The position numbers and the translations under genes are program-made. The notes under the pieces are model-generated. The model saw nothing but the letters and a program-made list of their open reading frames with translations, did not search any database and was not told the DNA's origin. Shown here piece by piece: positions 5,203-29,071 of a stretch of DNA of 64,000 nt. This DNA comes from Candidatus Latescibacterota bacterium (lineage in GTDB: Bacteria > Latescibacterota > UBA2968 > UBA8231). Position 1 is the stretch's first letter. The number at the start of each line of letters is the position of its first letter. The stretch spans positions 4,704,001-4,768,000 of the forward strand of contig OZ253462.1 of assembly GCA_965261395.1 (NCBI GenBank), given 5' to 3'.

Positions 5203-5203
5203 A
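5191..5203 (+). repeat. Left copy of 13-bp direct repeat TTCCAAAGCTAAA (includes polX stop)
   Basis: Identical to 7378-7390. Confidence 0.9.
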
Positions 5204-5204
5204 C

Positions 5205-6368
5205 ATGACCCGTAGCGATTACCTCTCACAGCTTTTTCGGCGACTGCATACATTTCGTCAGGAAGCCCAACTTGAGCCTGAGCAGGTCGAAAGTAACCTT
5301 GTTTTGGGGCCAGGCTGGATCCATGCGTTCGAGAGCGGAGCGGCCCTCCCCGGTCTTGATGTGGTTATGTCTCTGCTCTCACTCTATGGCAAAACCCTGC
5401 GCGACCTTGCAGAAGGCATAGAAGGGAACGCTCCGTCCATAAAACGCTCAATTACCCCAGAAGAAGTCGACAATGATCTCATTCTTCACTTTACCTATGG
5501 TGAATACGACGCTACGTACCGCCTTGAAGGTGTTACCGTGGAGCAGTTCACAGAAATAGTTCTAACGTTGCGAAATGGGCTCGCTCAGCTTGCTAACTCT
5601 GGGATTGAAGACCAGCGAGTCGAGACGATTAAGATGGAAAGTGTGGCCAATGCATTCATGAAAGCCGTTGAACTCTGGCCCCAAGCTAACCCCTCCGATC
5701 TCTGGTGGTTTCTCGTATATCGCGCCTACTGTGACCCATACAACCATCCTGCCCAGTATGCTCGCTTAGACTTTGCGCAAAGCTGGAAACGAACTGCTGG
5801 TTGGGCCTTGGAGTTGGTTCTCGAAAAACATTACGGTGCTACCCTGGCGAAGCAAGGGATCAACATGGTACGTAAAGATTCCGAGCGTAAGGAGAGGATT
5901 CTTCACGGTATCAACGTTGGTCACCGCCTTGAAGCAGACAAAGTGGATATTATGCTAACGGTCGGCGAGGGCGCAAACGAACGGATGATTGGGGTCGTTC
6001 ACGTCAAGGCGAGTTTTGCGGAACGCCGGACAGACGATGTTCCTATGAGTCAAGCACTTGTTGATGCTAGCTACATTTCCCCACTATGGACGATGGACTG
6101 CAAGAGTTTCCCTGGTCCTGAGCCCATCAATCGCGGAGAATTGGGCAAAATCTTCACCGGAGAAGATCAGGATCAAAGGAACGCAAAGAGAAAAGACATA
6201 GAAAATGACGGCTTTTTCTCAGCGTGCTTTTCCTACAATAAGAACACTCATCCGACTCCTCCCGATACCCCCCTAGCAAAGGCACGGATTTATTCATGTG
6301 ACTTCATCGACCCAGACGATGCTTTCACTAGGTTCGTCGTTTCGGAGAGTCGCCGATTTCGGAAATAA
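5205..6368 (+). CDS. Putative type II restriction endonuclease (BsaWI-like) with N-terminal XRE-like HTH
   Basis: QSWKRTAGWALE and DKVD...HVKASFAER resemble PD-(D/E)XK CCGG-family endonucleases. The first ~75 aa resemble an XRE/C-protein HTH. Adjacent to a methyltransferase. Confidence 0.68.
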   Translation: MTRSDYLSQLFRRLHTFRQEAQLEPEQVESNLVLGPGWIHAFESGAALPGLDVVMSLLSLYGKTLRDLAEGIEGNAPSIKRSITPEEVDNDLILHFTYGEYDATYRLEGVTVEQFTEIVLTLRNGLAQLANSGIEDQRVETIKMESVANAFMKAVELWPQANPSDLWWFLVYRAYCDPYNHPAQYARLDFAQSWKRTAGWALELVLEKHYGATLAKQGINMVRKDSERKERILHGINVGHRLEADKVDIMLTVGEGANERMIGVVHVKASFAERRTDDVPMSQALVDASYISPLWTMDCKSFPGPEPINRGELGKIFTGEDQDQRNAKRKDIENDGFFSACFSYNKNTHPTPPDTPLAKARIYSCDFIDPDDAFTRFVVSESRRFRK

Positions 6369-7232
6369 TTCCAAATTTGGCCCTTCGCTTTCCTCCAAGC
6401 GTTTGTTGGAGGCCCGAACTTGCTCAGGGTCAACTTCAAATCCTATGTAGGAACAGCCAAGGGTCAACGCCGCGGTTCCTGTAGTGCCCGAGCCAGAGAA
6501 CGGGTCCAAGATCACGACGTCTTCTCCACAGGTTCCGTACGCCTTAATGCAGCGAATTGGCAATTCCTTTGGAAAGCGTGAGAAATGCTTGAGCCCGTCA
6601 ATTTTCTCGTTTGCGAACTCCCACACGCTCTTAATCGGAGGCGTTACGCGAAAATCATGCCGCTCGCTCTTTGTCAGCAAGTAAATCGATTCGTGTTGAC
6701 GATGCGGGCGTCGGCAACGGCCCTCTGGCATGGCATTTTTTTTTCGCCAGATCACTTCTCCCCGGAACAAGTAGCCCGCGTCGCAAAGAGAAATAATAAG
6801 ACGATATGGGAGCGCCAGAAGATTGCCATACTGAAGCCACGTTTCATCCTTGTCGATAAACGCTTTTCGTCGCGCCCGTGGTTTGGTGTATGCTGAATTG
6901 TCCTCCGAAAAACCTTGTTTTTTCTCACCTAGGGTGCTGAACTTCCACGCTTTTTGATTCCAGTTCACAGGGGTGTTGTAAGCGTCTCCCATATTAATCC
7001 AAAGAATCCCTTCCGGCCTCAACTTCGGTAAAATCTCTACAAAGGCTTTCGTGAGAAACCGTAGATAATCCCTCGGGTCTTTTTCGATACCGATCCCTTC
7101 TGAGTGCCTTTGCCCCCAATAGGGCGGACTTGTCACAACTATATTCACGGACTCGTCTGGAAGTTGCGGAATCAGTTCTAAACAATCGCCTTCGTGGGTC
7201 TTATTGATCGGGAAAGGCCCGATTTGGTTCAT
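6294..7232 (-). CDS. Site-specific DNA methyltransferase, beta class (probably N4-cytosine)
   Basis: Motif IV VTSPPY precedes motif I LDPFSGSGTTG, with the typical GDCLE N-terminus. Confidence 0.92.
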   Translation of the reverse strand: MNQIGPFPINKTHEGDCLELIPQLPDESVNIVVTSPPYWGQRHSEGIGIEKDPRDYLRFLTKAFVEILPKLRPEGILWINMGDAYNTPVNWNQKAWKFSTLGEKKQGFSEDNSAYTKPRARRKAFIDKDETWLQYGNLLALPYRLIISLCDAGYLFRGEVIWRKKNAMPEGRCRRPHRQHESIYLLTKSERHDFRVTPPIKSVWEFANEKIDGLKHFSRFPKELPIRCIKAYGTCGEDVVILDPFSGSGTTGTAALTLGCSYIGFEVDPEQVRASNKRLEESEGPNLELFPKSATLRNDEPSESIVWVDEVT

Positions 7233-7987: not shown

Positions 7988-8055
7988 GGGAAAGCCTTGT
8001 GGTTGCCCTCATGTCTGGCAAATAATTGTAGGGGCGACCGGCCGGTCGCCCCTAC
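7984..8055. repeat. REP-like GTAG palindromes (one degenerate, one perfect 28-bp)
   Basis: GTAGGGGCGACCGGCCGGTCGCCCCTAC at 8028-8055 is a perfect palindrome. GTAGGGGAAAGCCTTGTGGTTGCCCT at 7984-8009 is a degenerate relative. Confidence 0.7.
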
Positions 8056-9992
8056 TAAAACGGCCCGGCGTGGTGCGAAGGCTCGTTGGCGTAGCGCTGG
8101 GTCTCCAGATCGAGGGTGATTTCGCAATGGGGGGGTACAGTGATACTCAGGTGTTTGCCATCAACGGTTATTTGGCGCTCTTCGGTCTCCAAGGGCGGCG
8201 CTGCGTACGTGCCGGCGTAGCCACCCATCCAGCCCGGATACTCGCTGGTGCGGCTTTGATAGGTAGCCCGGCCAAAGCGGTGCTCGCCAAAGGCCCCGCC
8301 CTGAATGACCAGTTCCCGGCCCTCGTTGTGGTTCAAATTGACCAAGCGCACGACCGTGCGGTCCGCGGCGAGCTTTTCCACCAAGGCACCGACGTCTTCG
8401 GGTAGGCCGGGGCGGCGGCGCTGGGCGTCAAAGTAGCGCAGGCGGGCGTGCAGCAGGCCGCCGTTGTAGATAGGCTGTGGGCCGCCCATAGTTAGCTGGA
8501 TGAGCGCTTCAGAGGAGACCGGATTGCCCCATTGCCAGTGGTGTACGTGGTGGCGGGTACCCACGTCTTGGTCGACGCGCATTTGGGCCAAACGGCGGCC
8601 GGCCACTTGGTACGTGGCCTGCAACATTTGCTCTGGGTAGGTCGGGTTGGCTCCGGCCAGAAAGCGCACCCAAGGGGCCTCGTGGCCCGAGTCCTCTTTG
8701 TTGTGGAAGGGGAACACCGCGGCCCAGTCGAACGCTTCTTTTTGCCGAATGGCCTCCATGCGCTCCCAGTCGCCCTCGTCCATGGACAAATTCCACAGCG
8801 TCACCGAGTACACCGGACTCATGGGCTGCCAGTCGAACCAGCCAGCATCGCCGTAGCGGTAGGGCACCAAAAAGGTTTCGCGCTGTTCGCCCATAGCGGC
8901 AAATTGGCTTGCCCAGCGCTCGGCCACGCTCATGTACTGGTCGCGGATATCCTCCATGCGCCCTTGTTCCAAGATGCGGTCCATCTGCTGGCGCGGCAGG
9001 TCGAGATAGGCGCGGTCGCGGGTCAACAGGTAGGCGTTGGCCGCCGCGTCGAGGGTGGCTTTCTGCAAGGTCAAAAATCCGTGCGGAAAGGTCCAGCCGT
9101 AGCGCCCGCCGTACCAGTTGCCAGCGCAGTATTCGCCCACTTGGCCCGACAGGCCAACGTTGTCCGGCAACATGCCGTCGTTAGCCTGTGCCCGCTCCAC
9201 CCAAGCGTCGGTGTATTCTACGACCCAAGCGCGGTATTTTTCGTCGCCGGTGATCAGGAAGGCGTTGGTAGCCAGTGAGGTGACGGCCAAGTTGGTCGGG
9301 GTGTCGCCCTGACGCCAGCGGTCGAACAGGGTCTGCCCCATCAAGCGGGCTTTGGCCGGGTCGGCTAAGTCCTGCACGCAGGTGATGCCAGGCAAGTCGA
9401 AAAAGGGTAGGTTGTACACTTCCATGCTGCCGCCCAACGGATTGTAGCTTTGGTGGTCGCGCTCGGTTAGCGGGGCAAAATAGGGGCCGTGGCTGCCGTT
9501 GAGGCCCGAGCGCAGGATCTTGTGCTCGGGGTCGTAGTTTTGCGCTTCAGGGTCTTCGTTGAGGTAAAAGCCGGCAAAGCGGCGGGCCCGTTCGACGCGC
9601 CGGGGGGCGTTGGGGTGGGCCAAGCACAAATGGTAAAAGCAGATGTCGCTTTCGGCTTGGTGCATCTGGTCTTCGCGGATGCCGTATTCCTTGCTAACAG
9701 TGCCCAAGCGGGTCAGTTGGCGAGTGATGGCCTCCCATTGGCGGTCGGCCAAGTGCAACAGGTGCTCGCCGCCGCCCATCAGATAAACGAGCGGCCAGTT
9801 GAAAAATGGCTCGTAGAAATCGTCGGGGCTACCGCCGCCCCACTCGTCCTGCCAGATGAATTCGCCGTCCTCGCGAGTAAAGTGGTCGAGAAAGGGCTGC
9901 ACCGATTGGTCCAAGGCGTCGAAGAGGCGGCGCTGCCACACGGCCCAATGGGCCGGCGCGTTGAGCGGGGTATTGGCGGTCAAGCTTTTCAT
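8055..9992 (-). CDS. Hypothetical 645-aa soluble protein, unknown function
   Basis: Long ORF with host-like codon usage and AGGAG RBS. No family recognised. Confidence 0.8.
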   Translation of the reverse strand: MKSLTANTPLNAPAHWAVWQRRLFDALDQSVQPFLDHFTREDGEFIWQDEWGGGSPDDFYEPFFNWPLVYLMGGGEHLLHLADRQWEAITRQLTRLGTVSKEYGIREDQMHQAESDICFYHLCLAHPNAPRRVERARRFAGFYLNEDPEAQNYDPEHKILRSGLNGSHGPYFAPLTERDHQSYNPLGGSMEVYNLPFFDLPGITCVQDLADPAKARLMGQTLFDRWRQGDTPTNLAVTSLATNAFLITGDEKYRAWVVEYTDAWVERAQANDGMLPDNVGLSGQVGEYCAGNWYGGRYGWTFPHGFLTLQKATLDAAANAYLLTRDRAYLDLPRQQMDRILEQGRMEDIRDQYMSVAERWASQFAAMGEQRETFLVPYRYGDAGWFDWQPMSPVYSVTLWNLSMDEGDWERMEAIRQKEAFDWAAVFPFHNKEDSGHEAPWVRFLAGANPTYPEQMLQATYQVAGRRLAQMRVDQDVGTRHHVHHWQWGNPVSSEALIQLTMGGPQPIYNGGLLHARLRYFDAQRRRPGLPEDVGALVEKLAADRTVVRLVNLNHNEGRELVIQGGAFGEHRFGRATYQSRTSEYPGWMGGYAGTYAAPPLETEERQITVDGKHLSITVPPHCEITLDLETQRYANEPSHHAGPF

Positions 9993-10167
9993 GCGGTAGC
10001 GCTCCTGAGTAGTTGCGGCGGGGTTGCCACTTCTGCGCGGGTGATTTTAGGAAGATAAAGAGCGCGTGTAAAGCAGCTTGACGGAGCGGAACGAGGCGGT
10101 TTATTTGCGCCTTGCCGAGGTCGTCTTCCGAGTGGGCGACAAAAAACCGCTGATTGGAGAAGGGTGT

Positions 10168-10614
10168 ATGCGCCGCAGTATGGGAATTGCCCTGTGGAGC
10201 GTGGTCCTGTTGGGGGCGGCCGGTTGCACGCCCGACCTGCCCCCAGGACCGCTGCGCATCCAAGTCACCGGAGAAGAGTACATCTGGCAATTCCGCTACC
10301 CAGGCCCCGACGGTGCCTTGCAGACCGACGACGATATCATCAAGCCGGGAAAGGAGTTACATCTACCGCTTGGCATGTCGATTGAACTCGAACTGACCAG
10401 TCGAGACTACATCTACACCTTCGCCCTACCCCATCTCGACCTACATCAGGTCGCCGTGCCCGATTTGACCTTTCCGCTGACTTTCGTCCCACAGGCCACC
10501 GGCGTATTCGCCTTTGTCGGCGACCAAATGTGCGGCTTTGAACACGAGTCGCTCAACGGCCGCGTGGTAGTCGAGTCGCCAGCGGCTTTCGTCGATTGGT
10601 TGGAGAGGCCGTGA
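10168..10614 (+). CDS. Cytochrome c oxidase subunit II-like cupredoxin lipoprotein (degenerate CuA site)
   Basis: GGAGAAGG RBS and lipobox-like AAGC. WQFRYP, ELHLP and LTSRD...CG..H pattern of the COX2 periplasmic domain. Confidence 0.7.
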   Translation: MRRSMGIALWSVVLLGAAGCTPDLPPGPLRIQVTGEEYIWQFRYPGPDGALQTDDDIIKPGKELHLPLGMSIELELTSRDYIYTFALPHLDLHQVAVPDLTFPLTFVPQATGVFAFVGDQMCGFEHESLNGRVVVESPAAFVDWLERP

Positions 10615-10709
10615 TAGGTTTGGGGAAAATTCAGTAACCGTGACGAACAACTACTGTCCGAGTACGTCACAGCGTCGAAGCCTATCGGCAGAGGACGACA
10701 CGAGAAATT

Positions 10710-11315
10710 TTAAGACCGGCGCAGCGTGTCAATGAGCCGTCGCGCATGGCAAGAGGCTTCCACCACTTTACTCGGATCCAAGCATCCAAGAAGGTCAAAC
10801 GAATGCCGACCCTTCCGGTATGTTCCTTTACCTTTAGAGCACGACCTTGTCGCCTGTTTCAGCGCTGGTTCAAGGTCATCTTTTGCGATGGCCTCCACAT
10901 CGTCTCGCGCAGATAACGCGGCGGCGTTGAAATCCTTGCCAAAATAGTCACCCAAAGATTGCCGGTCTGCGACGAACCAGGCTTCCATGCACTGCACCAT
11001 GAGTTGTGCGCTGTCATCCACGGCGGCCGAGGGCTGGGTCCATTTATCGCGTTTCTTTAGGTGCTCCCAGGGGCTATCGCCGGCTGCGACTGCGGCCTCA
11101 CTATCTACCAAGAGAACGATAAAACTGTCGTCTTCGGCTTGACCAATAGCCGTACAAAATTGGTCGTATGCTCTTTGTCGGGAACCGCAAGCGATAACGC
11201 GCGGCATGCGGCCCTCAAGCCCGGCCTTGCTAAAAAACTCCCTGAAACCATTGCGACATTGTCTTCTTAATTGATTAGAGTCTCCACCACCCTCGACATA
11301 TACCTTGATGCTCAC
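10710..11315 (-). CDS. DUF4276-like TOPRIM-fold putative nuclease/effector
   Basis: VYVEGGGD, LLVDSE and MEAWF acidic motifs. GTGA overlap with the upstream ATPase. Confidence 0.75.
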   Translation of the reverse strand: MSIKVYVEGGGDSNQLRRQCRNGFREFFSKAGLEGRMPRVIACGSRQRAYDQFCTAIGQAEDDSFIVLLVDSEAAVAAGDSPWEHLKKRDKWTQPSAAVDDSAQLMVQCMEAWFVADRQSLGDYFGKDFNAAALSARDDVEAIAKDDLEPALKQATRSCSKGKGTYRKGRHSFDLLGCLDPSKVVEASCHARRLIDTLRRS

Positions 11316-12538
11316 CAAGGATTCCCCCCAATCTCGCCACTGCTCCAGAGGTCACCGAGCCGGTAGTTCTCCAACCAAGCGGCCATTTTCTTTTCGTCGA
11401 GACGGCGCATCACAGTCTGCCCGTCGCGCTTTTCACAAACCACGATACTCCACCATTCATTGGTCAGGGCATCGACGAGCATGTCCGAATGGGTCGTTAC
11501 AATTAACTGGCTGCGTTCGGACGCTTCAAGCAACAACTTGCTCACCGTCGGCAGTATGTCCGGATGCAGGCCCAGTTCGGGTTCCTCGATACAGATGAGG
11601 GGCGGCGGTTGCGGGTGGCAGAGCACGGCGAGCAAACAGAGGTACCGCAGCGTACCATCCGAAAGACGAGTAGCCGGTATGACCACGTCGCCTTCCTCTA
11701 AGAACAGTTGGACCGTACTACCCTCAATCTTGACGTGGAAATCGGTTATGCCTTCGTAGAATTTGCTTAAAGCGTCCAGCAGACGCCGCTTTACCGCTGG
11801 CTCGCCTTGGAACCTGTTCAACACCAAGGCTAAGTTTTTCCCGTCTTCTTGCAGGAAATCGTTGGGAAGGTCGGCCTTCTGCGGCAAACGCAGTGGGGAA
11901 TCGCGCCCAAGCGACCACTCGCGATAAATGCGAATGCGGCTCAATACCTCGCCGAGGTACGTCAGTTCGGGGTATTGGTCGGGATCTTTGCGTTGGGACA
12001 GAATGGACTGGTCCGGTTTAATCTCCTCGGGACGAAAGTCGTACCCCAGCCGAGGACGAACATGAGGGAACTTCGCCTTTACGGTAGCCAGTATCTCCGG
12101 ACTCAAGTCATCCTCATCCTTAAAAGTGAGAAACGCCCGCCCGCCCTTCTGATTGTAATAGATATACGGCTCCTCATGTCCTTCATCACTCTGTTCGTTC
12201 TCTATCCGCTCTTCGATCAGTTCAAATCGCTGGCCGCGCTCGGCAAAACCCAGCCGGTATCGCAACGCCTGCGGCCCTTGTGGGTTCTCCACAATGGCCT
12301 CGATATGGGCAGTACCCTCCGGTTTTCCCCGCCAGATCCAATCGTGGATACCCCCGCCCTCACGAATAGGTGCGGCCAAATCTCGCGGAGCCGACCGGAG
12401 GATATCGATGCTCTCTAGAAGATTGGACTTCCCCGAACCATTGGGGCCGATCAATACATTTAGCCGCTTGAGTTCGAGTCCTCTGGAGTCGGGGCCGAAT
12501 GAGAGCAGGTTGGTCTGTTTGATACGACGAATGAGCAT
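11312..12538 (-). CDS. ABC-type ATPase (AAA_15/AAA_21-like, non-transporter)
   Basis: Walker A GPNGSGKS, signature LSDGT, Walker B/D-loop IEEPELGLHP and H-loop TTHS. Confidence 0.9.
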   Translation of the reverse strand: MLIRRIKQTNLLSFGPDSRGLELKRLNVLIGPNGSGKSNLLESIDILRSAPRDLAAPIREGGGIHDWIWRGKPEGTAHIEAIVENPQGPQALRYRLGFAERGQRFELIEERIENEQSDEGHEEPYIYYNQKGGRAFLTFKDEDDLSPEILATVKAKFPHVRPRLGYDFRPEEIKPDQSILSQRKDPDQYPELTYLGEVLSRIRIYREWSLGRDSPLRLPQKADLPNDFLQEDGKNLALVLNRFQGEPAVKRRLLDALSKFYEGITDFHVKIEGSTVQLFLEEGDVVIPATRLSDGTLRYLCLLAVLCHPQPPPLICIEEPELGLHPDILPTVSKLLLEASERSQLIVTTHSDMLVDALTNEWWSIVVCEKRDGQTVMRRLDEKKMAAWLENYRLGDLWSSGEIGGNPW

Positions 12539-12563
12539 ATCCTACCTTCACAATCTCCAGTAG

Positions 12564-13214
12564 TTAAGAGCTTTGGCTACTGGGAAAGAACAACCGCTTC
12601 AGCCAATCAGCGAGAACATCTACTTCTGTAACACTGGGATCAAGGAAGCAGGCACTAATGGCCGTCCCGAAAGGCCGTCCCGGCTCTTCCTGCCAAGCAA
12701 GCCAAGTATGGATGACCGCCTTTGGCTCAGCTAGTTGCTTGAAACGCCGCTCGCCTTCAGGGATAGCTGCCACACTGGCCTTAGCATGGTCAAAAAGAAT
12801 ATTAGGTTGCGGAACAAGGAAGTGCAGGAAATCCTCCAAGATTCCACTTGTCTGGTTATTCGGCATAATCCAGACGCCCAATCGCGGTAGATAACTTCCT
12901 GCCGGAGGATCGAGGATCGTTCCGTCCGGGTCTGGTTGATCAGGCACATTTTGGTATCCGAAATCGGTGATTCGATCTCGTATCGACTGCCAACGGGCGC
13001 TTATGTCCGTATCGGCATCAATGACTACCCCAATAGCGTCGCCCTCCTGGATCAATAATGGGAGTCGGACCCCAAGGTTCTCAATGAGTTTTATGTCATT
13101 GCCACAGTTCTCCACTTCGTCGAGATGGGGAATACCGTGATTCCCACAGATATGCTTCAGGACGTGCTCGTCGTCGGTGCCCTCCACCAAGAGGATTTTC
13201 CTCCCATTTGCCAT
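12564..13214 (-). CDS. DUF3226-like TOPRIM-fold putative nuclease/effector
   Basis: LLVEGTDD, VVIDADTD (DxD) and WIMPNN...GILEDF. Starts 1 nt after the upstream ATPase stop. Confidence 0.75.
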   Translation of the reverse strand: MANGRKILLVEGTDDEHVLKHICGNHGIPHLDEVENCGNDIKLIENLGVRLPLLIQEGDAIGVVIDADTDISARWQSIRDRITDFGYQNVPDQPDPDGTILDPPAGSYLPRLGVWIMPNNQTSGILEDFLHFLVPQPNILFDHAKASVAAIPEGERRFKQLAEPKAVIHTWLAWQEEPGRPFGTAISACFLDPSVTEVDVLADWLKRLFFPSSQSS

Positions 13215-13215
13215 A

Positions 13216-14328
13216 TCAGCGCACCTCGATTTGGTCGCGGGTTGCTATGGCAAGTTCATCTTCTGATAGCACAGTGGGAATAATGTCCTCACCCCTGCGA
13301 GCCAAGCGTATAAGCACCCCCTCTTCAGGCGCTTCCGCCGCCGCTTTCTGAAACGCCTCGACCGCGTCCCAACTATGGGACGTCGCAAAGACTTGAATAT
13401 CGAGCTTTTGCGCCAACCGGAATATCGTGCGCCACACATCCAACTGCACGGTGTGATGCAGACCGTTTTCAAACTCATCCACCAGCAAAAGTCCCCCGCG
13501 AGCATTGACAAGCGAGAGAATGATTCCAAACAGCCGATTCAGTCCGTCGCCAAACGAGCGCAGTGGAATAGGCCGTGCGATATTGTCTGCTCGTACAATG
13601 GCGGTAAGCTTTCTGCGAGTGCTGCCAACCATGGAAACGGCAGAGATCTGAGGACTGATTATGTGCAACGCTTCAACGACATCCTTTTCCCTATCAGATA
13701 GCGCGATTTTATCCCACAATGGCCCCAACGCTCCTGTGCTTTCTCCGCTGTAGGGACTGACGAAGATACAGGACATCCGGGTTCCATTGGATGCTTCAAA
13801 ACGCGCTCTGTGCATCGGATGAAGGTATCTGCCAAAACGATCAAGCCGATGGGCTTTTTTTGTGTCTTGTGTCTCGACGATCAAAGCAGCTATACCGTCT
13901 GGTTCTAGTTTGCCAAGAGGGACCAACCGATATTGTCCGTCCGAGTCGGATTCCTCTGATAGCCAATCCAAGCATATTGTCATGCTTATTGGGCTCAACT
14001 TGCCACTAGTTGAAATAGCGATCGGCTTAGGGCTCTCTGAAAGCAGAGGGAATCCGTGGAACAGCCCAGAGACCTGAAGCAAGCTATCGGGGTCAGCGGG
14101 GTGTTCTTCTTCCTCTGCTCCCTCAATATTTTCTTCACGGTGTCTGACTATGTCGTAAATCACGTCAGGCGCGGCATTGTTTGCGAGAATACGCAGCCCT
14201 TCAAGAACAGATGATTTTCCGGCGCTGTTCTTTCCTGTAATCAGGTTCACGCGCCCCAAGCCACAGATGGTCAACTCGCGGAATACGCGGAATCGCTCCA
14301 GCGTTATGCTCTCAATTTTGAGGCTCAT
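13216..14328 (-). CDS. ABC-type ATPase (AAA_15/AAA_21-like, non-transporter)
   Basis: Walker A GKNSAGKS, signature SFGDG, Walker B LVDEFENGLH and H-loop ATSHS. Confidence 0.9.
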   Translation of the reverse strand: MSLKIESITLERFRVFRELTICGLGRVNLITGKNSAGKSSVLEGLRILANNAAPDVIYDIVRHREENIEGAEEEEHPADPDSLLQVSGLFHGFPLLSESPKPIAISTSGKLSPISMTICLDWLSEESDSDGQYRLVPLGKLEPDGIAALIVETQDTKKAHRLDRFGRYLHPMHRARFEASNGTRMSCIFVSPYSGESTGALGPLWDKIALSDREKDVVEALHIISPQISAVSMVGSTRRKLTAIVRADNIARPIPLRSFGDGLNRLFGIILSLVNARGGLLLVDEFENGLHHTVQLDVWRTIFRLAQKLDIQVFATSHSWDAVEAFQKAAAEAPEEGVLIRLARRGEDIIPTVLSEDELAIATRDQIEVR

Positions 14329-14366
14329 TGCATTCCCCTTTCACTAGGGTACTTCGTCCATTTCTT

Positions 14367-14421
14367 CATCTTGCGACAATATACGCGAACTGCTCGAACT
14401 GCTTCAACCGTCGCCAAGATG
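14367..14421 (-). promoter_or_regulatory. Putative promoter/operator of the ATPase-TOPRIM operon
   Basis: TTGAAG-N18-TATATT on the minus strand. The spacer is largely a 9-bp tandem repeat, bracketed by the inverted repeat CATCTTGCGAC/GTCGCCAAGATG. Confidence 0.4.
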
Positions 14422-14463
14422 GATGCGTTCATCCACTTCCCCGCCCTAGCCGTCACCCTCCCC

Positions 14464-15519
14464 TCAGTCCAGCCGTATCTCCCCGCCCGCTTCTTGGCTC
14501 CGATAGATCCCATCGAGGATTTTCATCACCTGTAAGGATTGTTCCGGCGGCACCGGCGAGGGCCGCCCTTGGGCGATCGCCGCGGCGAACTCCACGCATT
14601 CCTGCGCGTGGGCTTCGAGGCCGTCGTACATCAGCATGAGCTTGCGGTCGTACTGCTGGCGGGTCTCGTTGTTGCTCTCGCAAATCGAGCACTCGGGCCA
14701 ATGCGCCCCGCCGCGAGTGCCGTAGAGCCACATCTGCATGTCCTCGCCTTGGACATTGTGGTGCAAAAGCCAGCTCACCTCCAGCATGAGCGTTGCGCCG
14801 TTGTCAAAGCGCACAAAGGCCGCGGCAAAATCCTCGACATCGTAGTGAGATGGGATCGGCTGGCGGCCCCATTGGCTGAAAGCCCCTTCTTGGTGCGCCA
14901 ATTCAGCGCGGGCCACGCCCGAAATGGCCACCGGCTCGGGATGCCCCATAAACCACAAGGTCAGGTCGAGAATGTGAACCCCAATGTCGATGCAGGGGCC
15001 GCCGCCGCTGTGCTCCTTGAGAATAAACCCGCCGCCGACCGGCGCGCCGGCCCGGCGCAGCATCCAACTGCGGGCGTGGTAGATGTCGCCGAGCGCGCCT
15101 GTGTCCAACTCGGCCTTCAGCGCGCGGGACGAGCCTTGAAAGCGAAAGTGCTGCGCCGTCATCAGCTCCTTGCCCGAGGCATCGCGCGCCGCAATCATCT
15201 GGCGAACGTCCTCGGGCGTGGGGGCCAAAGGCTTTTCGCAGATCACGTGCTTGCCAGCCGACAGCGCGGCAATGGCCAACGGAGCGTGATACATATTGGG
15301 CGTGCAGATGTCGATAATGTCGATATCTGAATCGCTGAACAGCGCCTCCGGGTCGGTGTGCAGCTTGGTGACCCCGTTTTCTGCGCCAAAGTGCTGTAGC
15401 GCGTCCTCGCTAATATCGCTGCCGGCGATCAGTTCGGCCTCGCTAGAAGCCTGCCAGCCGGGGAGATGCGTGCGGGCGATCCCGCCAACGCCGACGATAC
15501 CTACTTTGAGCTTGCTCAT
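14464..15519 (-). CDS. Gfo/Idh/MocA family oxidoreductase
   Basis: KVGIVGVGGIA Rossmann motif, HVICEKP and GGGPCIDIGVH. Confidence 0.92.
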   Translation of the reverse strand: MSKLKVGIVGVGGIARTHLPGWQASSEAELIAGSDISEDALQHFGAENGVTKLHTDPEALFSDSDIDIIDICTPNMYHAPLAIAALSAGKHVICEKPLAPTPEDVRQMIAARDASGKELMTAQHFRFQGSSRALKAELDTGALGDIYHARSWMLRRAGAPVGGGFILKEHSGGGPCIDIGVHILDLTLWFMGHPEPVAISGVARAELAHQEGAFSQWGRQPIPSHYDVEDFAAAFVRFDNGATLMLEVSWLLHHNVQGEDMQMWLYGTRGGAHWPECSICESNNETRQQYDRKLMLMYDGLEAHAQECVEFAAAIAQGRPSPVPPEQSLQVMKILDGIYRSQEAGGEIRLD

Positions 15520-15574: not shown

Positions 15575-16327
15575 TCATATCCGCGTCAGGGCTTCCGCCG
15601 GCATCCAACCGCCGAGGCCGTTGGCCAGCCGCACCAGCATCCATTCCCCCTCCTGCCGCACCAAGCGCACCTTGGTGCCCTCGTGCGCGACAAAAACTTC
15701 CGTCTGCCCGAGGTCAGGGCCGGAGTGCGCGCGTGCCTCGACAACTGTGACGATGGCTTCGCTCGTCTGCGCCTGATGGCGCAGGCGCGTCCCCAGCCAC
15801 AGCGCGGATCCAACGCTCAGCCCCGCACAGAGCAAAACCCCGACTAGCCACAGCGCCCCGGGGCGCGTCTGCGCAAACAACCAACGCACCCCCAAGACAA
15901 AGACCGCGAAAAACGCCACGGCGAACAGCAGGCTGAGCTGGTTGAACGTAGGCCAAAAATAGGCGGCTACCAGTGCGGCTACCAGCGCGTTGAGGCCATC
16001 CTCGGTTTGTGGGTCGCGGTCCTGCTTCACGAGGTTGGCGAAGCGCAGATTGGCCTCGATGTCCTCGTCGTGCGGTAGCAAGCGCCGCGCCCGCTCATAC
16101 CAGAGAATCGCCTCGCCCAGCTTCCCGGACTTGAAGCAGGCATTGCCCAGATTGTAGTAGATCCGAGCGTCTTGCACCCCGGAATCCACCACCTCCAAGT
16201 AGCTGCGCCGCGCCGCCGCAAAATTCCCGTCCCGATAGAGTGCGTTGGCCTCGTTGTACTGCCCAGCCGTGGCCCCGGCGTGGAGTTGGGTGCCCAACAG
16301 GAGCAACAGCGCCAGTGTGCGCATCAT
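15575..16327 (-). CDS. BatE-like TPR + SH3 membrane protein
   Basis: YYNLGNA TPR, TM helices and C-terminal HEGTKV...GW SH3b. Last gene of the Bat cluster. Confidence 0.8.
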   Translation of the reverse strand: MMRTLALLLLLGTQLHAGATAGQYNEANALYRDGNFAAARRSYLEVVDSGVQDARIYYNLGNACFKSGKLGEAILWYERARRLLPHDEDIEANLRFANLVKQDRDPQTEDGLNALVAALVAAYFWPTFNQLSLLFAVAFFAVFVLGVRWLFAQTRPGALWLVGVLLCAGLSVGSALWLGTRLRHQAQTSEAIVTVVEARAHSGPDLGQTEVFVAHEGTKVRLVRQEGEWMLVRLANGLGGWMPAEALTRI

Positions 16328-18105
16328 ATGCGTTTCTCCAAACCCGCGATCACCTCCTCGGCCAAGCGCTGTGCGGCCGCCCGGTCCGTCGGCGGGCCGC
16401 CCGCGGGCGCAAAGCGCGCAAAGTCGCAGCGCGTCAGCAGGTCGCGCAACGCCGCAGTCGTCTCGGGCTCGACTTGGCGCGCCGTCAGGGCCTCGGTACA
16501 GACCTCAATGGTCAGGCCGGCGGCGGCGAGGTTGAGGCGGTCGGCCACGAACTCCAGCACCGCGGCGCGGACCTCGCCGTAGAACTCGGCCTCGGTGCCG
16601 GCCTCAAGCAAGTCATCGGCGCGGGCTAGGCGGCGTTCAGCCTCGCCTTTGGCCCGGCGCTGGCGCGCATACGCAACATCGCCCTGCAAGCGCCGCTGGT
16701 GGCGTTGCCACAAAAGCAGGGCCAAGAAGGCGATGGGCAGCACGCCCTGCAAGGTCCAAAACCAATAGCTGTTGTATAACATGGAGGCCGCGCCGAGGAC
16801 CTCGGCGTCGGGCTTGATGTAGCGGATGTCCTCCCCGACGACCTCGATGTCGCGCCGGCTCAACCCGTAGTTCACCCCTTCTTCCTCGGCACTCCCCTCG
16901 CTGTGAACGGTGATGGGCGCGGATTCGAGCACCTCGTAGCGCGCTTGGTGTGGGTCGAAGTATGCAAAGCGCAACGGCGGGATGTTTAGGGTGCCGCCCT
17001 GCTCGGGAATCAAGATGTACTCGAAGAGGCGGCGGCCCCCGTACACGCCGTTGGTGATCCGCTCTTCTTGTTCGACCTTGGGGTCGTAGAGCTTGACGCC
17101 AGCGGCGACATCGACTTGCAGAGGCTGCACCGCGGCCATGTTGCCCTCGCCCTCGATGAGGACTCGCAGCGTCACCGGATCCCCGACCGGAACTTGGGTC
17201 GGCTGGGCCGCGACGCTGAGTTGGAAGCGCCCGACCGCGCCGGTAAATTCCGCAGGGCGGCCCTGCTCTGGCAGCGGCAGGGTCTCGATTTGCAATTCCT
17301 CGCTTTGCAGGAGCACCGAGCGCGAGCGGCCAAAAAACGGATCGCCGGCGAAGAAATCGTCGAGCACTCCGCCGCGACGCGAGCGCTGTTGGGGAATGTC
17401 GCAGGAAACGGCCAACGTGCCGACGGCGTGGGTACCCGCACTGGTGGGGAAAAGGGCCACGCGCCGCAGCGGCGCGACGTTGAAGGACACGCCGCCGCGC
17501 ACCTCCTGATGGGCCTCCAGTTGTTGGGCGACAAAGAGGTCTTCGGTCCAGAACCCGACAAAGGTCGGCAGCTTGTTGAAGCTGACGTTGTGCGGTTGGA
17601 TGCGGTAGAACAGGTCGTAGGATACGGTGACCTGCTGCCCCACATACGCTCGCTCGTGGTCGGCGCGCGCTAATACGAATATGGGGGGGTCGTCTGTCTG
17701 GCCTGCTTGCGAGCGGCTGGTGCCGCGGACGATCTCGACGGTAATGGGCTTGGTCTCATAGCGCTCGTCGCCCATTTCCAGTTGGAGCGGACCGATTGTG
17801 AAGGTACCGGCCTGCTTGGCATAGAGGACGTACGTTAACTCGCGGGTGAAGCTGACGTTGGAGAAGTTGCTCATCTCCACCTGCGTGCTAGTCGCGGGCC
17901 CCTCAACGTGGAAATCCTTTAGGTTGAACGCTGGCGTCACCTGGCCCACTTGCTCGTCGGAGGTGATGCGGAGCGTCAGGCGAATCGGCTCGCCCTGACT
18001 AGCGCGCGTGCGATCGACGGACGCCTCAAACTGAATCGTCGCCGCCGCAACGCTGGATGCCGCAAGCACCCAGAGTACTAGCGGGATAGTCAGACGCGTG
18101 CTCAC
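16324..18105 (-). CDS. BatD family protein
   Basis: Signal peptide, FEASVD and PLP...FTGAVGRF...GEGN, with a C-terminal TM. Bat context. Confidence 0.85.
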   Translation of the reverse strand: MSTRLTIPLVLWVLAASSVAAATIQFEASVDRTRASQGEPIRLTLRITSDEQVGQVTPAFNLKDFHVEGPATSTQVEMSNFSNVSFTRELTYVLYAKQAGTFTIGPLQLEMGDERYETKPITVEIVRGTSRSQAGQTDDPPIFVLARADHERAYVGQQVTVSYDLFYRIQPHNVSFNKLPTFVGFWTEDLFVAQQLEAHQEVRGGVSFNVAPLRRVALFPTSAGTHAVGTLAVSCDIPQQRSRRGGVLDDFFAGDPFFGRSRSVLLQSEELQIETLPLPEQGRPAEFTGAVGRFQLSVAAQPTQVPVGDPVTLRVLIEGEGNMAAVQPLQVDVAAGVKLYDPKVEQEERITNGVYGGRRLFEYILIPEQGGTLNIPPLRFAYFDPHQARYEVLESAPITVHSEGSAEEEGVNYGLSRRDIEVVGEDIRYIKPDAEVLGAASMLYNSYWFWTLQGVLPIAFLALLLWQRHQRRLQGDVAYARQRRAKGEAERRLARADDLLEAGTEAEFYGEVRAAVLEFVADRLNLAAAGLTIEVCTEALTARQVEPETTAALRDLLTRCDFARFAPAGGPPTDRAAAQRLAEEVIAGLEKRI

Positions 18106-18836
18106 CAGTCTCTTGCCTGCGCTTTGCCAGTGGCGCGAAACCGGTGCTGCTGAGCTTCCAACTCGCGGTTCTTGAGGGCATCCATAAGCTGCTGCGCTTC
18201 CTCGGGACTAATGGACTGCTGCTCGGTGGGCTGTTCCTGCTGCTGTTGGTCTTGCTCTGAATCCTGCTGTTGATCCTGTTGATTTTGTTGCTGCTGTTGG
18301 TCCTGTTGATCCTGCTCTGAATTGTCCTGCTGTTCCTGTTGCTCTTGCTCCTGCTCCGAATCGTCCTGCTGATCTTGCTGATCCTGTTGCTCTTGCTGCT
18401 GCTGTTGCTGCTCCTGCAATTTCTCCAGCGCCAGCTCCAAGTTCACCTTTGCATCCTCGTCGGCGGCATCTAGCTCCAGCGCCTGCTTATACGCGGCGAC
18501 GGCCTGTTCAAACGCCTGCTGCTGAAAAAAGCTATTGCCCATGTTGTAATGGGCCTGCGCCTGGATTTTTTTCTCCTCGGCGCTGAGCACCCGCTCGAAT
18601 TCCCGCAGAGCTTGGTCGTATTCACCGCGCTTAAAAAGCGCGTCCCCAACGTTGAAGTGCAGCTCGGGCGCGTCGGGCCGGTCGAGGAGAGCGTCGCGGT
18701 AGAGCTGGAGGGCCTGATCGTACTCGCCGCGCTGATAGTGCTCCAAAGCCTCGGCGCTCTTGCTGGCCACGGGATCGCCCACGGTCGCCCCGCAGACGAC
18801 TAGCCAGATCCCCAAGACAACCCATAGTGTACCCAT
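18102..18836 (-). CDS. BatC-like TPR protein with Q/E/D-rich linker
   Basis: TPRs (HFNVGDA, HYNMGN, NLELAL), Q-rich tract and C-terminal RDW. TAATG overlap with batB. Confidence 0.82.
   Translation of the reverse strand: MGTLWVVLGIWLVVCGATVGDPVASKSAEALEHYQRGEYDQALQLYRDALLDRPDAPELHFNVGDALFKRGEYDQALREFERVLSAEEKKIQAQAHYNMGNSFFQQQAFEQAVAAYKQALELDAADEDAKVNLELALEKLQEQQQQQQEQQDQQDQQDDSEQEQEQQEQQDNSEQDQQDQQQQQNQQDQQQDSEQDQQQQEQPTEQQSISPEEAQQLMDALKNRELEAQQHRFRATGKAQARDW
18230..18416 (-). repeat. Low-complexity Gln-rich coding repeat
   Basis: Repeated CAG/CAA/GAT codons encoding QQDQQ/SEQ units. Confidence 0.7.
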
Positions 18837-19861
18837 TAGGCGAACCGCCCTTTCCACTCGCGGGCCTGTACCCGCGCATCGCCTAAGAAAACCTCGGCGA
18901 AGAAACAGCAAAGAGCTAATAGTAAGGGCCATTGGAAACGCTCCTGATAGCGGGTGAGGCGAGTCGAGCCGATTTCGCGCTGATCCATCTCGGCGATCTG
19001 GTCGTATAAGGCTGCTAACTCCGCGCCTCCCAAAGTGCTGCGAAAGTAATCGCCCCCCGTCTCCAGTGCCATATCCTGCAAAGTGCTCTCGTCGAGCCGG
19101 GTTTTGACGTATTGGCCGCGCTTGTCTTTGTGAAAGCTCACGCCCCCGTCCTCCTCTTCGGTAGGAATGAGTTCGCCGTCGGGCGTCCCCAGCCCCACGG
19201 CAAAAATGCGCACGCCCTGTCCGGCGGCGGCCTGCGCTGCCGCCAGCGGCTGCCCAATGTGATCCTCGCCATCGGTGAAGAGCACGATGGCTTTGTGCTG
19301 GCCCTCGCCTTCCTCAAACGAGCGCGTGGCCAGCCGTACAGCGTCGCCAATAGCCGTCCCCTGGACGGGTACAACCCCGGCGTCCAGTACATCGAGAAAC
19401 AGTTCCACGGCCCCGTAGTCGGTCGTCAGCGGGCATTGGACAAAGGCTTGGCCGGCAAAGACCACCAACCCGACCCGGTCGCCTTGGAGCAAGTCCAACA
19501 GGCTGCGAATTTGGTATTTGGCCCGCGCCAAGCGACTCGGCTTGACGTCCTCGGCCTGCATGCTGCGCGACACGTCGAGTACCAGCATCACGTCCACGCC
19601 CTTGCGCTGGGCCATTTCGAGTTGGGTGCCGAATTGGGGGCCGGTCAGCGCGAGGATCGCAAAGAAGGTTCCCAGTCCCAAGAGGACGTACTTGCCCATC
19701 TGGCGACCCCGGCTCAGGTTGCGGGTCAGCTTCTCGGCCAGAGCGCTACGGGCAAAACGCGCCAAGGCGCGGCGGCGTGCCCAGAGCGCCCAAGCAAAAA
19801 AGGCCGCCAAAAAGGGCAATAGCAACAGCAGCCAAAAATTGTACAAGTTCGCAAAGCGCAT
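18836..19861 (-). CDS. BatB-like VWA domain protein
   Basis: MIDAS DVSRSM, PSRL, QCPLTTDY and TDGE. Confidence 0.88.
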   Translation of the reverse strand: MRFANLYNFWLLLLLPFLAAFFAWALWARRRALARFARSALAEKLTRNLSRGRQMGKYVLLGLGTFFAILALTGPQFGTQLEMAQRKGVDVMLVLDVSRSMQAEDVKPSRLARAKYQIRSLLDLLQGDRVGLVVFAGQAFVQCPLTTDYGAVELFLDVLDAGVVPVQGTAIGDAVRLATRSFEEGEGQHKAIVLFTDGEDHIGQPLAAAQAAAGQGVRIFAVGLGTPDGELIPTEEEDGGVSFHKDKRGQYVKTRLDESTLQDMALETGGDYFRSTLGGAELAALYDQIAEMDQREIGSTRLTRYQERFQWPLLLALCCFFAEVFLGDARVQAREWKGRFA

Positions 19862-19867
19862 AAAAAC

Positions 19868-20872
19868 TCAGGGCAGGGAGCGGAAGCGGGTATGGGCCAA
19901 CAGCATCTCCACCAACAGCAGGCCCAAGCCCACGTAAAGAAAATAGGCGAAGCGCTCCGAGTAGTTCAGGTGGATTGAGGATTTGATCTCGGTTGCCTCT
20001 AACTCGCCGATTTCGCTATAGATGGCCTCTAGCTTTTCCTCGCTGGTCGCCCGAAAGTACTGGCCGCCGGTGCGCGCAGCTACCTCTTGTAAGGTCTCCT
20101 CGTCGATCTCCACCTGGACGGTCTGATAGCGGGTGCCGAAAATCCCGCGCACGGGCCGGCGAATCTCCCCGTCGCTGCCCACGCCAATCGTATAGACCCG
20201 AATGCCCACGGCTGCGGCCACCTCGGCCGCGGTCAACGGCTCGACCTCGCCGGCGTTGTTCACGCCATCGGTCAGCAGGATAATCACCCGGCTTTCGGCG
20301 TCCGAGTCGCGCAGGCGATTGCAGGCGTTGATCAGCGCCATGCCAATGGCCGTGCCATCCCATTCCTCGCCGGCGATTTCCACGCCTTCGAGAAACTCCA
20401 ACAGCACTCGATAGTCGAGGGTCAGCGGGCACTGCGTGAAGCTTTCGCCGGCAAAGACGACCATGCCGATGCGGTCGCTGTGACGGCCGGAGATAAAGTC
20501 GGCCACCACTTCCTTGGCCACCTGTAAGCGGTTCTTCTGGCCCTCGGCTAGGTCATTCAGCTCCATGCTCGACGAGATGTCTAAGGTCAGCATGATGTCG
20601 ATGCCCTCGCCCGATATTTCCCGCACCTCGCGCCCGGCTTGCGGGCGGGCCATCGCCGCGATGAGGCAGCCCAAGCCGAGCATCTTCAAAACGAGGAGGC
20701 CGTGCCGGAGCTTGGTCCACAGCGACGCTGTGGCGCGGCGCAACACGCCGAGATCGGAAAACTGCACGCTGCTCTGGCGGCCTCGGTGCGCGCGCACATA
20801 GCTGTAGAGCAGAACGGGCAACAGCAGGAGTAGCAACAGCCACTCGGGGTTCTCAAACCGGATGTTCTGCAT
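19868..20872 (-). CDS. BatA-like VWA domain protein
   Basis: RFENPEWL N-terminus, ARPQ, MIDAS DISSSM, GTAIG and LLTDG. Start moved to ATG 20872. Confidence 0.88.
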   Translation of the reverse strand: MQNIRFENPEWLLLLLLLPVLLYSYVRAHRGRQSSVQFSDLGVLRRATASLWTKLRHGLLVLKMLGLGCLIAAMARPQAGREVREISGEGIDIMLTLDISSSMELNDLAEGQKNRLQVAKEVVADFISGRHSDRIGMVVFAGESFTQCPLTLDYRVLLEFLEGVEIAGEEWDGTAIGMALINACNRLRDSDAESRVIILLTDGVNNAGEVEPLTAAEVAAAVGIRVYTIGVGSDGEIRRPVRGIFGTRYQTVQVEIDEETLQEVAARTGGQYFRATSEEKLEAIYSEIGELEATEIKSSIHLNYSERFAYFLYVGLGLLLVEMLLAHTRFRSLP

Positions 20873-26445: not shown

Positions 26446-26447
26446 GC

Positions 26448-27230: not shown

Positions 27231-27231
27231 T

Positions 27232-28164: not shown

Positions 28165-28176
28165 GGTACTTCCTCC

Positions 28177-29052: not shown

Positions 29053-29071
29053 GGCTCGGCTCGCCTTGGCT

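Follow-up and report, generated by a model that had tools for sequence, protein, structure and literature searches.

Two ATPase–TOPRIM gene pairs matching PDC-M38 and HEC-01, probably independent modules stacked in a variable chromosomal slot

The block of four genes on the minus strand at 14328–10710 of the window (the whole stretch of DNA that was analysed, 64,000 nucleotides) quite likely consists of two independent modules, each an ATPase sensor with a TOPRIM nuclease, stacked in a replaceable chromosomal slot and probably under one promoter. Judged by profile matches, pair 1 is PDC-M38 and pair 2 is HEC-01, both already catalogued as two-gene anti-phage candidates; the preliminary description had proposed an undescribed four-gene system, and this proposal gives way to a named PADLOC candidate for each pair. 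Across phyla, the genes of each pair stay together as a unit, which those of the four-gene stack do not.

Results

Gene layout and composition

Four open reading frames follow one another on the minus strand: ATPase 1 (PDC-M38A, an AAA_21-type ABC ATPase of 370 aa, 13216–14328), nuclease 1 (PDC-M38B, a DUF3226 TOPRIM-fold protein of 216 aa, 12564–13214), ATPase 2 (HEC-01A, likewise an AAA_21-type ABC ATPase, 408 aa, 11312–12538) and nuclease 2 (HEC-01B, a DUF4276 TOPRIM-fold protein, 10710–11318, 202 aa, or 201 aa from an alternative start at 11315). The co-oriented, tightly packed arrangement of the preliminary description was reproduced, with gaps of 1 nt and then 25 nt, and with a GTGA overlap at the ATPase 2/nuclease 2 junction provided that nuclease 2 starts at GTG. 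The lower GC content that it reported is real but modest (0.535, against 0.593 on average in the genome, sd 0.036; a value this low occurs in 7% of 3.6-kb windows).

Purifying selection acts on each of the four genes (dN/dS 0.20–0.30; broken genes were excluded from the dN/dS and tree sets), and because their synonymous divergence (0.29–0.39) equals that of the flanks (0.31–0.39) they are taken to be old residents. The two ATPases share short, motif-level similarity only (the best BLASTP segment matches at 12 of 25 residues) and the match between the DUF3226 and DUF4276 profiles of the partners is weak (hhalign probability 40%); a recent duplication is therefore ruled out, as the high divergence of the pairs had already suggested. 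Cargo of a prophage or transposon was likewise rejected: viral contigs held no relatives, flanking repeats did not go beyond chance, and inspection of the window's ORFs of at least 150 aa found no integrase.

Each pair matches a catalogued candidate

Pfam assigned both ATPases to AAA_21 (2.4e-20 for ATPase 1, 4e-38 for ATPase 2) and the partners to DUF3226 (nuclease 1, 1.4e-67) and DUF4276 (nuclease 2, 2.6e-17). Against PADLOC, where the comparison is with profile models, a named match was found for all four proteins, near full-length for each pair. ATPase 1 matched PDC-M38A at 1.9e-87 over model positions 2–383 of 383 (the best of 101 models), and the sole two PADLOC matches of nuclease 1 were to PDC-M38B (7.2e-49 and 6e-39); ATPase 2 matched HEC-01A at 1.7e-174 over positions 3–393 of 393 (the best of 124 models), and nuclease 2 matched HEC-01B at 3.6e-80. 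PDC-M38/DUF3226 is widespread, with 466 confirmed stretches. A literature search that reached a minority of subscription papers and bioRxiv supplements returned no occurrence of DUF3226, PF11536 or PDC-M38 and no description of the four-gene layout.

The Walker A lysine (K38 in ATPase 1, K37 in ATPase 2), the signature (SFGDG and LSDGT), Walker B (DE and EE) and the H-loop histidine (H318 and H350) show little or no variation across 67 and 60 homologues, respectively, as expected from the motif set first read from the two proteins; the C-terminal consensus sequences of the two ATPases are unrelated to each other. The source genome encodes about 25 diverse, paralogous ATPases of this kind with swapped nuclease partners (HNH, PIN, RloB, DUF4276, DUF3226), for many of which the partner is missing or broken; 21 of the 23 others scanned match PADLOC defence models.

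Predicted TOPRIM folds and the ATPase 1–nuclease 1 complex

The predicted structure of nuclease 1 (pLDDT 93) aligned with PH0156 (VIA Z 11.6, rmsd 3.5, 186 aligned), Bp OLD (Z 9.8, rmsd 4.7, 167 aligned) and AriB (Z 6.8), and that of nuclease 2 (pLDDT 94.5) with Bp OLD (Z 9.6, rmsd 4.4, 169 aligned) and AriB (Z 7.6, rmsd 4.5, 165 aligned). By these VIA-align comparisons of models, from which the fold assignments come, both nucleases share the fold of the OLD-type TOPRIM nucleases. Foldseek returned nothing at E ≤ 0.001 for either model, although OLD ranked first, and PDB sequence searches with both nucleases gave no significant match. The acidic residues are E11/D15/D66/D68/E127 in nuclease 1 (E11, D15 and D66 invariant in 87/87 homologues) and E9/D13/D72/E74/E112 in nuclease 2 (D72, E74 and E112 in 91/91, E9 in 90/91); each set of five parallels, by motif pattern, the E26/D30/D88/E90/E122 given for AriB in PMC11464382. 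Profiles, fold and acids together bear out the earlier reading of TOPRIM-type acidic motifs in both small partners, and of two ABC-ATPase + TOPRIM pairs with PARIS-like logic.

Complex modelling covered the cognate pair 1. An ATPase 1 dimer with nuclease 1 scored 0.69 (best of three controls, 0.00), a mark reached by 116/157 solved pairs and 2/215 mismatched pairs; our job differs from this calibration set, and its alignments were our own. The runs agreed in at least 93% of contacts, with a partner pLDDT of at least 85, and ATPase 1 residues 341–369 touch nuclease 1 in the model; resemblance to PARIS or Septu complexes of solved structure may account for the passing score. For PDC-M38/DUF3226, the predicted fold, the candidate catalytic acids and the modelled interface with the ATPase are new with respect to the literature searched.

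A variable slot within the genus

The block occupies a variable defence slot (10615–14463) between a conserved GFO oxidoreductase gene (14464–15519) and a COX2-like gene (10078–10614). Across the genus this slot measures 32 bp when empty and reaches about 14 kb, with differing defence cargo; it was resolved in 24 of 31 genomes (unresolvable in G003, G006, G014–G017 and G023). All four genes are intact in 4/24 resolved slots, pair 1 is intact without an intact pair 2 in three, pair 2 is intact alone in five, and four slots are empty; both ATPases are kept, in the same order, in seven. The remaining slots contain one pair only, pairs with broken genes or different defence genes, or are empty, and the cargo in other species includes restriction genes of types I and III, a cytosine methylase alongside a HATPase-nuclease, an RT gene and an ATPase of Menshen-like type. 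Slot states are dispersed over the tree of the flank genes, where G005, which has pair 2 only, and G011, which has both pairs, are sisters at 0.99, while the pair-2-only ATPase alleles cluster together at 0.91. In the G027 allele, 98 nt from the 3' end of GFO are duplicated around pair 1.

Five pair-2-only alleles share a leader of about 130 nt; similarity to it in the four-gene alleles is confined to the final ~22 nt of the spacer, and G028 retains an intermediate piece. The 25-nt spacer (12539–12563, minus strand) is read as the remnant of a longer leader belonging to pair 2, and the loss of that leader in the stack is a new observation. A putative sigma-70 promoter for the block lies at 14378–14407 on the minus strand (9/12 consensus matches), and its -10 hexamer is kept in 9/10 pair-1 leaders; the scan found 2 sites vs. 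2.4 expected by chance, and a scan of the pair-2 leader found none. Judged by their spacing and the leader loss, the four genes are probably co-transcribed. The RNA-library run X16 comprised contigs of a relative and gives no information on whether the genes are transcribed or share a transcript.

Nucleases decay before ATPases

Within the slots, seven lesions disrupt a nuclease whose neighbouring ATPase is intact, and the opposite case does not occur (p = 6e-4 if lesions fell in proportion to gene length), so that nucleases decay before ATPases in this slot, which is also new; the seven are not fully independent (two genomes contribute two lesions each), 3'-flank deletions reach nuclease 2 first by position, and the frameshifts are possibly assembly errors. 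Cassette deletions in public contigs also fall within nuclease genes (4/4). On the other side, contigs in run X6 have loose ends within ATPase 1, and there is one counter-case, locus L114, where ATPase 1 is interrupted by an insertion close to its 3' end and nuclease 1 is intact. ATPases with a broken partner retain all motifs, and a low-power test detected no relaxed selection in them (dN/dS 0.19–0.26 vs. 0.22–0.27).

The two pairs do not travel together outside the genus

Outside the genus, ATPase 1 adjoins nuclease 1 in 67/68 informative loci and ATPase 2 adjoins nuclease 2 in 54/55. Pair 2 was present at 0/72 outside pair-1 loci, 58 of which extend 2 kb or more downstream, and pair 1 at 0/80 outside pair-2 loci, 39 of which extend 2 kb or more upstream. 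At the level of whole genomes, for which 50 of the 72 loci were used (those dropped were mostly short contigs), 39/50 genomes with DUF3226 also have DUF4276, 19 on a shared contig and 20 not, and the nearest same-contig distance between the families was 25 kb. The four-gene order, whose recurrence had been put forward as a check, was thus not found elsewhere, and a single four-gene system is rejected on these counts together with the 4/24 genus slots that hold all four genes intact. At one outside locus, L153, the order is reversed: a HEC-01-like ATPase, whose partner is truncated to 47 aa, lies directly upstream of a PDC-M38 pair. The profile scan of outside loci, built from close relatives, missed this distant truncated partner, which was recognised on inspection.

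The preliminary description had left the choice between a two-sensor, two-effector system and two stacked modules; the evidence supports the stacked modules and does not support the joint system, the pairs being apart outside the genus and each found intact without the other within it. A narrower form of coupling, peculiar to this lineage, would have leader loss bring the pairs under co-regulation, with, for example, mixed ATPase oligomers or one sensor activating both nucleases. We think this improbable. It would fit the 7/24 slots that keep both ATPases in order, the long residence of the four genes, the pair-2 leader reduced to ~22 nt, the intact motifs and absent relaxation in ATPases with a broken partner, and the arrangement at L153; against it, either pair occurs intact by itself in sister species and at every informative outside locus, the ATPases share almost no sequence and differ in the C-termini where the pair-1 model places nuclease binding, and the absence of relaxed selection is equally compatible with recent lesions. 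Just as unlikely is the wider conjecture that leader loss fused two unrelated ATPase–TOPRIM modules into a coupled two-sensor operon and that partner-less ATPases, still selected, guard or trigger the nucleases of other modules, making the ~25 ATPases a cross-wired network.

Discussion

If the block is two independent modules, as we favour, the ATPase dimer of each would bind its own nuclease, as modelled for pair 1, where strands and a helix at the ATPase C-terminus lie against the region of the first nuclease helix, and as we infer for pair 2. By analogy with PARIS, the ATPase would sense a phage product and its ATP cycle would free or activate the nuclease; a two-metal TOPRIM site might then cleave nucleic acid of the host, with tRNA, the target of AriB, as the likeliest substrate and DNA as a possible one, bringing the infected cell to a halt. 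The nuclease may be lost first because it is the costly half; strict antitoxin logic is, however, not assured, since the PARIS nuclease alone is described as only mildly toxic (PMC11464382). The slot itself would be swapped between species through recombination in its conserved flanks, and the stack would provide two separate sensing specificities and no joint machine.

Selfish addiction modules of the toxin-antitoxin kind, devoid of an anti-phage role and kept since loss of the ATPase frees the nuclease, would also yield the 7:0 pattern of decay and the many ATPases of the source genome with a missing or broken partner, and Payne et al. (bioRxiv 10.1101/2024.01.29.577857) saw no protection from the single HEC-01 that they tested by plating. 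A different HEC-01 is reported to have protected against at least one of three phages. Against addiction stand also the restriction, methylase/HATPase-nuclease, RT and Menshen-like genes that fill the slot in other species, the original definition of both families through nesting inside defence systems, and the frequency with which the slot is simply empty (4/24). We give addiction little chance. That the pairs are DNA-repair or housekeeping nucleases (OLD/Rad50-like) with no role in conflict is very improbable, for although the ATPase profiles match RecF, Rad50 and SMC structures at motif level, presence is patchy, loss frequent and GC lower, the ~25 diverse paralogous ATPases have swapped nuclease partners, and the slot is one shared with restriction systems.

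The discovery is modest, in that both modules already bear catalogue names. Its use is in opening PDC-M38/DUF3226, a widespread candidate, to direct testing through the predicted fold, candidate catalytic residues and modelled interface; in offering a clean natural series of close species in which modules are gained and swapped, a leader is lost and nucleases decay first; and in a caution for genome scans, where four tightly packed defence genes need not be one system.

Comparison with known systems

OLD TOPRIM domains, as in the OLD nucleases and GajA of Gabija, are among the top structural matches of both partners, but there ATPase and TOPRIM are fused, and here and in relatives they are separate ORFs; no UvrD helicase adjoins the genes here, unlike Gabija. 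DUF4276 is the family of Mad4 in MADS (PMC12065111); ATPase 2, however, reaches 96 bits against NCBIfam MAD3 (cut-off 420), and the block is flanked by metabolic genes (GFO, COX2-like) and by no multi-gene methylation operon. ATPase 1 matches AbiLi of AbiL at 3.2e-62, but PDC-M38A scores higher and nuclease 1 has no AbiLii or RloB match in Pfam or PADLOC. HEC-01 (Payne et al.; PADLOC-DB) corresponds to pair 2, an ABC ATPase and then a TOPRIM gene with near full-length matches, differing in that pair 2 here lies outside any Hma operon, downstream of a PDC-M38 pair, and has lost its own leader. PDC-M38, a phage defence candidate of PADLOC-DB v2, corresponds to pair 1 (PDC-M38A, then PDC-M38B), and profile matching found no difference. 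PARIS (AriA/AriB; PMC11464382) resembles both pairs in its separate ABC ATPase and TOPRIM genes, five-acid pattern and related fold, and is itself marked by an ATPase hexamer, release on a trigger and cleavage of tRNA-Lys; the partners here are shorter (202–216 aa vs. ~305 aa for AriB), as are the ATPases (370–408 aa vs. 464 aa), and neither partner matches DUF4435, the AriB family, in Pfam or the AriB model in PADLOC. By analogy, PARIS would be the best mechanistic model for both pairs.

Gene organization and identity

The four genes are ORFs on the minus strand of the window and form two pairs: ATPase 1 (14328-13216; Pfam AAA_21; PADLOC PDC-M38A, 1.9e-87) with partner 1 (13214-12564; DUF3226; PDC-M38B, 7.2e-49), followed by ATPase 2 (12538-11312; AAA_21; HEC-01A, 1.7e-174) with partner 2 (11318/11315-10710; DUF4276; HEC-01B, 3.6e-80). 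The co-oriented, packed arrangement of the preliminary description was confirmed (junctions: 1-nt gap, 25-nt gap and GTGA overlap), along with its lower-GC block (GC 0.535 vs 0.593 genome-wide, a level that 7% of same-sized windows reach) and its complete ATPase motifs, invariant or near-invariant across 67 homologues of ATPase 1 and 60 of ATPase 2. Since dN/dS among congeners is 0.20-0.30 (ATPase 1, 0.26; partner 1, 0.27; ATPase 2, 0.20; partner 2, 0.30), the four genes are real and under selection. The proposal of an undescribed system was not supported: the PADLOC profile search puts names on both pairs, and the sequence features examined place pair 1 in PDC-M38 and pair 2 in HEC-01. Membership tests for PARIS, AbiL, MADS and OLD qualified neither pair.

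Occurrence of the pairs outside the genus

Of the 80 top-ranking genome loci for partner 1, 72 fall outside the genus and span many phyla; among named relatives, the nearest are Candidatus Latescibacterota. ATPase 1 adjoins partner 1 in 67 of 68 informative outside-genus loci, and a profile search found partner 2 near none of the 72 (58 extend at least 2 kb downstream, 50 on both sides). ATPase 2 adjoins partner 2 in 54 of 55 informative loci among 80 metagenome loci, and partner 1 was found in 0/80, with at least 2 kb of upstream sequence in 39. ATPase gene and partner gene are paired. Because the first profiles derived from close relatives, the test was repeated with Pfam families on whole genomes, which covered 50 of the 72 loci: DUF3226 and DUF4276 were both present in 39 genomes, on the same contig in 19 and on separate contigs in 20, and the nearest distance among the 19 was 25 kb. 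At locus L153, a partial exception, the order is reversed: immediately upstream of a PDC-M38 pair come a HEC-01-like ATPase and its partner, truncated to 47 aa. The block had been read either as one four-gene system, whose order should recur elsewhere, or as two stacked modules; these counts removed the former and left the latter, the pairs occurring apart. We consider it likely that the block is two independent PARIS-like modules. At locus L129 (4868-11191) a 990-aa methylase-like gene separates two PDC-M38-type pairs, which are divergent and lie about 3 kb from each other.

States of the slot within the genus

A GFO oxidoreductase gene and a COX2-like gene border the slot that the block occupies, and this slot could be resolved in 24 of the genus's 31 genomes. 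Four slots have the complete set of intact genes (the source genome G000, G011, G012, G028); three keep both ATPases but have one or both nucleases broken (G001, G010, G022); three hold pair 1, with pair 2 absent or as remnants only (G027, G030 and G018, the last with nuclease 1 broken); six hold pair 2 without pair 1 (five intact, G026 with its nuclease deleted); four hold remnants or other cargo; and four are empty. On the flank-gene tree these states are dispersed, whereas the five intact ATPase alleles from pair-2-only slots form a cluster (0.91), a pattern in keeping with recombinational exchange of slot alleles, the trees being FastTree trees of short genes with many weak nodes. Synonymous divergence of the pairs equals that of the flanking genes, so the pairs are old residents of the lineage.

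Five pair-2-only alleles share a leader of about 130 nt ahead of ATPase 2; in the window just its last ~22 nt are left, joined to the partner 1 stop, and G028 keeps a piece of intermediate length. With its own leader so cut, pair 2 probably relies on the pair-1 promoter in the window; both promoter scans stayed at chance level. Such shared transcription is what a genus-specific unit of four coupled genes could draw upon, and the slots with one pair alone are what it would have to accommodate; we regard that reading as very improbable, and keep to two independent modules.

Slot lesions comprised seven with a broken nuclease and intact ATPase vs none of the reverse (p = 6e-4 under gene-length-proportional lesions, which is overstated because the lesions are non-independent and 3' deletions strike partner 2 first). 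Related strains added four cassette deletions, all within nuclease genes, in their public contigs (placed at 92% likeness, some with short sides at the deletion joints): the entire partner 1 (contig sets X2, X6), 219 nt of partner 1 and 533 nt of partner 2 (both X16), and the partner 2 3' end (X2, X8). Against nuclease-first decay stand an insertion in ATPase 1 with its partner intact (L114), loose contig ends inside ATPase 1 (X6), and the statement, in PMC11464382, that AriB by itself is only mildly toxic.

Several slots have features of their own. In that of G026 (L166:1685-8979) the nuclease-less pair 2 is followed by the Mod and Res genes of a type III restriction system, which enclose a Menshen-like/NsnB-like ATPase together with its 181-aa partner, the latter without family match. 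The G008 slot, one of the four with remnants or other cargo, is a 14-kb defence island (L069:2363-16041) of a C5 (cytosine) methylase with a HATPase-PD-(D/E)XK nuclease, a 604-aa RT whose C-terminal extension is TOPRIM-like by eye, an HTH-IrrE peptidase with a small partner, and type I restriction genes with fused methylase-specificity subunit. In G027 a 98-nt direct repeat (93% identical) of the GFO 3' end surrounds pair 1 (L080:2956-3053 and 4898-4995) and resembles an integration or duplication scar. G019 and G020 have a 138-aa ORF, without Pfam or PADLOC match, at pair 1's place upstream of pair 2 (L076:2223-2639, L077:2159-2575).

Other ATPases and features of the source genome

Besides ATPases 1 and 2, 23 further AAA_21-like ATPases of G000 were scanned, and 21 matched PADLOC at E <= 1e-30: six HEC-01-type, one more with a DUF3226 partner, three AbiLi, three PtuA with PtuB, four NsnB, and one each of HEC-03, HEC-02, PDC-M07 and PD-T4-4. 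Stacking is habitual in G000, since two different pairs are also stacked at C1:3216672-3219993 (NsnB-like ATPase and PIN gene, then HEC-01 ATPase and truncated partner). The larger region (L251; C1:3216672-3225744) packs three ATPase modules into 9 kb, with a broken methylase-like region among them; two are NsnB-like ATPases, each having a small partner (one being Pfam PIN), and the third is the HEC-01 ATPase with its truncated partner. Elsewhere (L253:1092-3189; C1:423592-425689) the ORF overlapping a HEC-03B-type ATPase downstream matches Pfam RNA_ligase (1e-17), not PIN.

Within the window, 5187-7232 is a second variable slot, of whose content L085 and L063 keep just remnants, and holds a convergent type II restriction-modification pair of N4/N6 methylase and nuclease, the latter with a fused N-terminal HTH domain (HTH_31 + BsaWI-like; PADLOC REase_II 5.9e-41). 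A highly conserved 645-aa protein (8055-9992; dN/dS 0.05) had no Pfam match; a DNA search found additional stretches similar to it in G000 and related genomes. By translation inspection 15575-29196 and 37833-63566 hold ordinary core genes (Bat-like vWA/TPR operon, ABC transporter set, and a cluster of ribosomal protein, EF-Tu/EF-G and RNA polymerase genes).

Predicted structures

Both partners were predicted confidently (pLDDT 93 for partner 1, 94.5 for partner 2). The partner 1 model matched PH0156 best (Z 11.6, rmsd 3.5, 186 aligned), then Bp OLD (Z 9.8, rmsd 4.7, 167 aligned), Ts OLD (Z 9.3, rmsd 3.2, 128 aligned) and retron Eco2 (Z 8.1). Partner 2 matched Bp OLD (Z 9.6, rmsd 4.4, 169 aligned), Ts OLD (8.0), AriB (7.6) and GajA (6.8), far exceeding background (Z 4.8 and below). 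For two ATPase 1 chains plus partner 1 the predicted complex reached a score of 0.69 (best control 0.00), a mark attained by 116/157 solved pairs vs 2/215 mismatched pairs, counts that hold only roughly here because the job had three chains and relied on custom alignments. Runs agreed in at least 93% of contacts, with partner 1 pLDDT at least 85; the pass may stem from resemblance to solved complexes. The modelled interface sets ATPase 1 residues 341-369 against partner 1 residues 35-57 and 108, with conservation higher than average on the ATPase side (0.75 vs 0.65) and lower on the partner side (0.43 vs 0.61).

Comparison with known systems

Payne et al. (10.1101/2024.01.29.577857) list HEC-01 as a candidate made of an ATPase and a TOPRIM protein; the one copy that they tested protected against no phage, and the PDCs are 145 untested candidates from the same paper. 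A cold-seep study (10.1101/2024.09.26.614923) reports protection by another HEC-01 against one or more of T7, T5 and T4. DUF4276 is described in PMC12065111 as a Mad4-related TOPRIM family; among the papers listed by literature searches, none mentioned DUF3226, PF11536 or PDC-M38. The TOPRIM-type acidic motifs earlier ascribed to both partners were borne out by the OLD-like predicted folds and by a five-acid pattern: the AriB set (E26, D30, D88, E90, E122, as listed in PMC11464382) is mirrored by E11, D15, D66, D68 and E127 in partner 1 and by E9, D13, D72, E74 and E112 in partner 2. Both pairs probably work like PARIS, the mechanism of which is also reviewed in PMC13064643: each ATPase would hold its own TOPRIM nuclease, as modelled for pair 1, would sense a phage product, and would then set the nuclease on host nucleic acid, with trigger, release and target inferred from PARIS.
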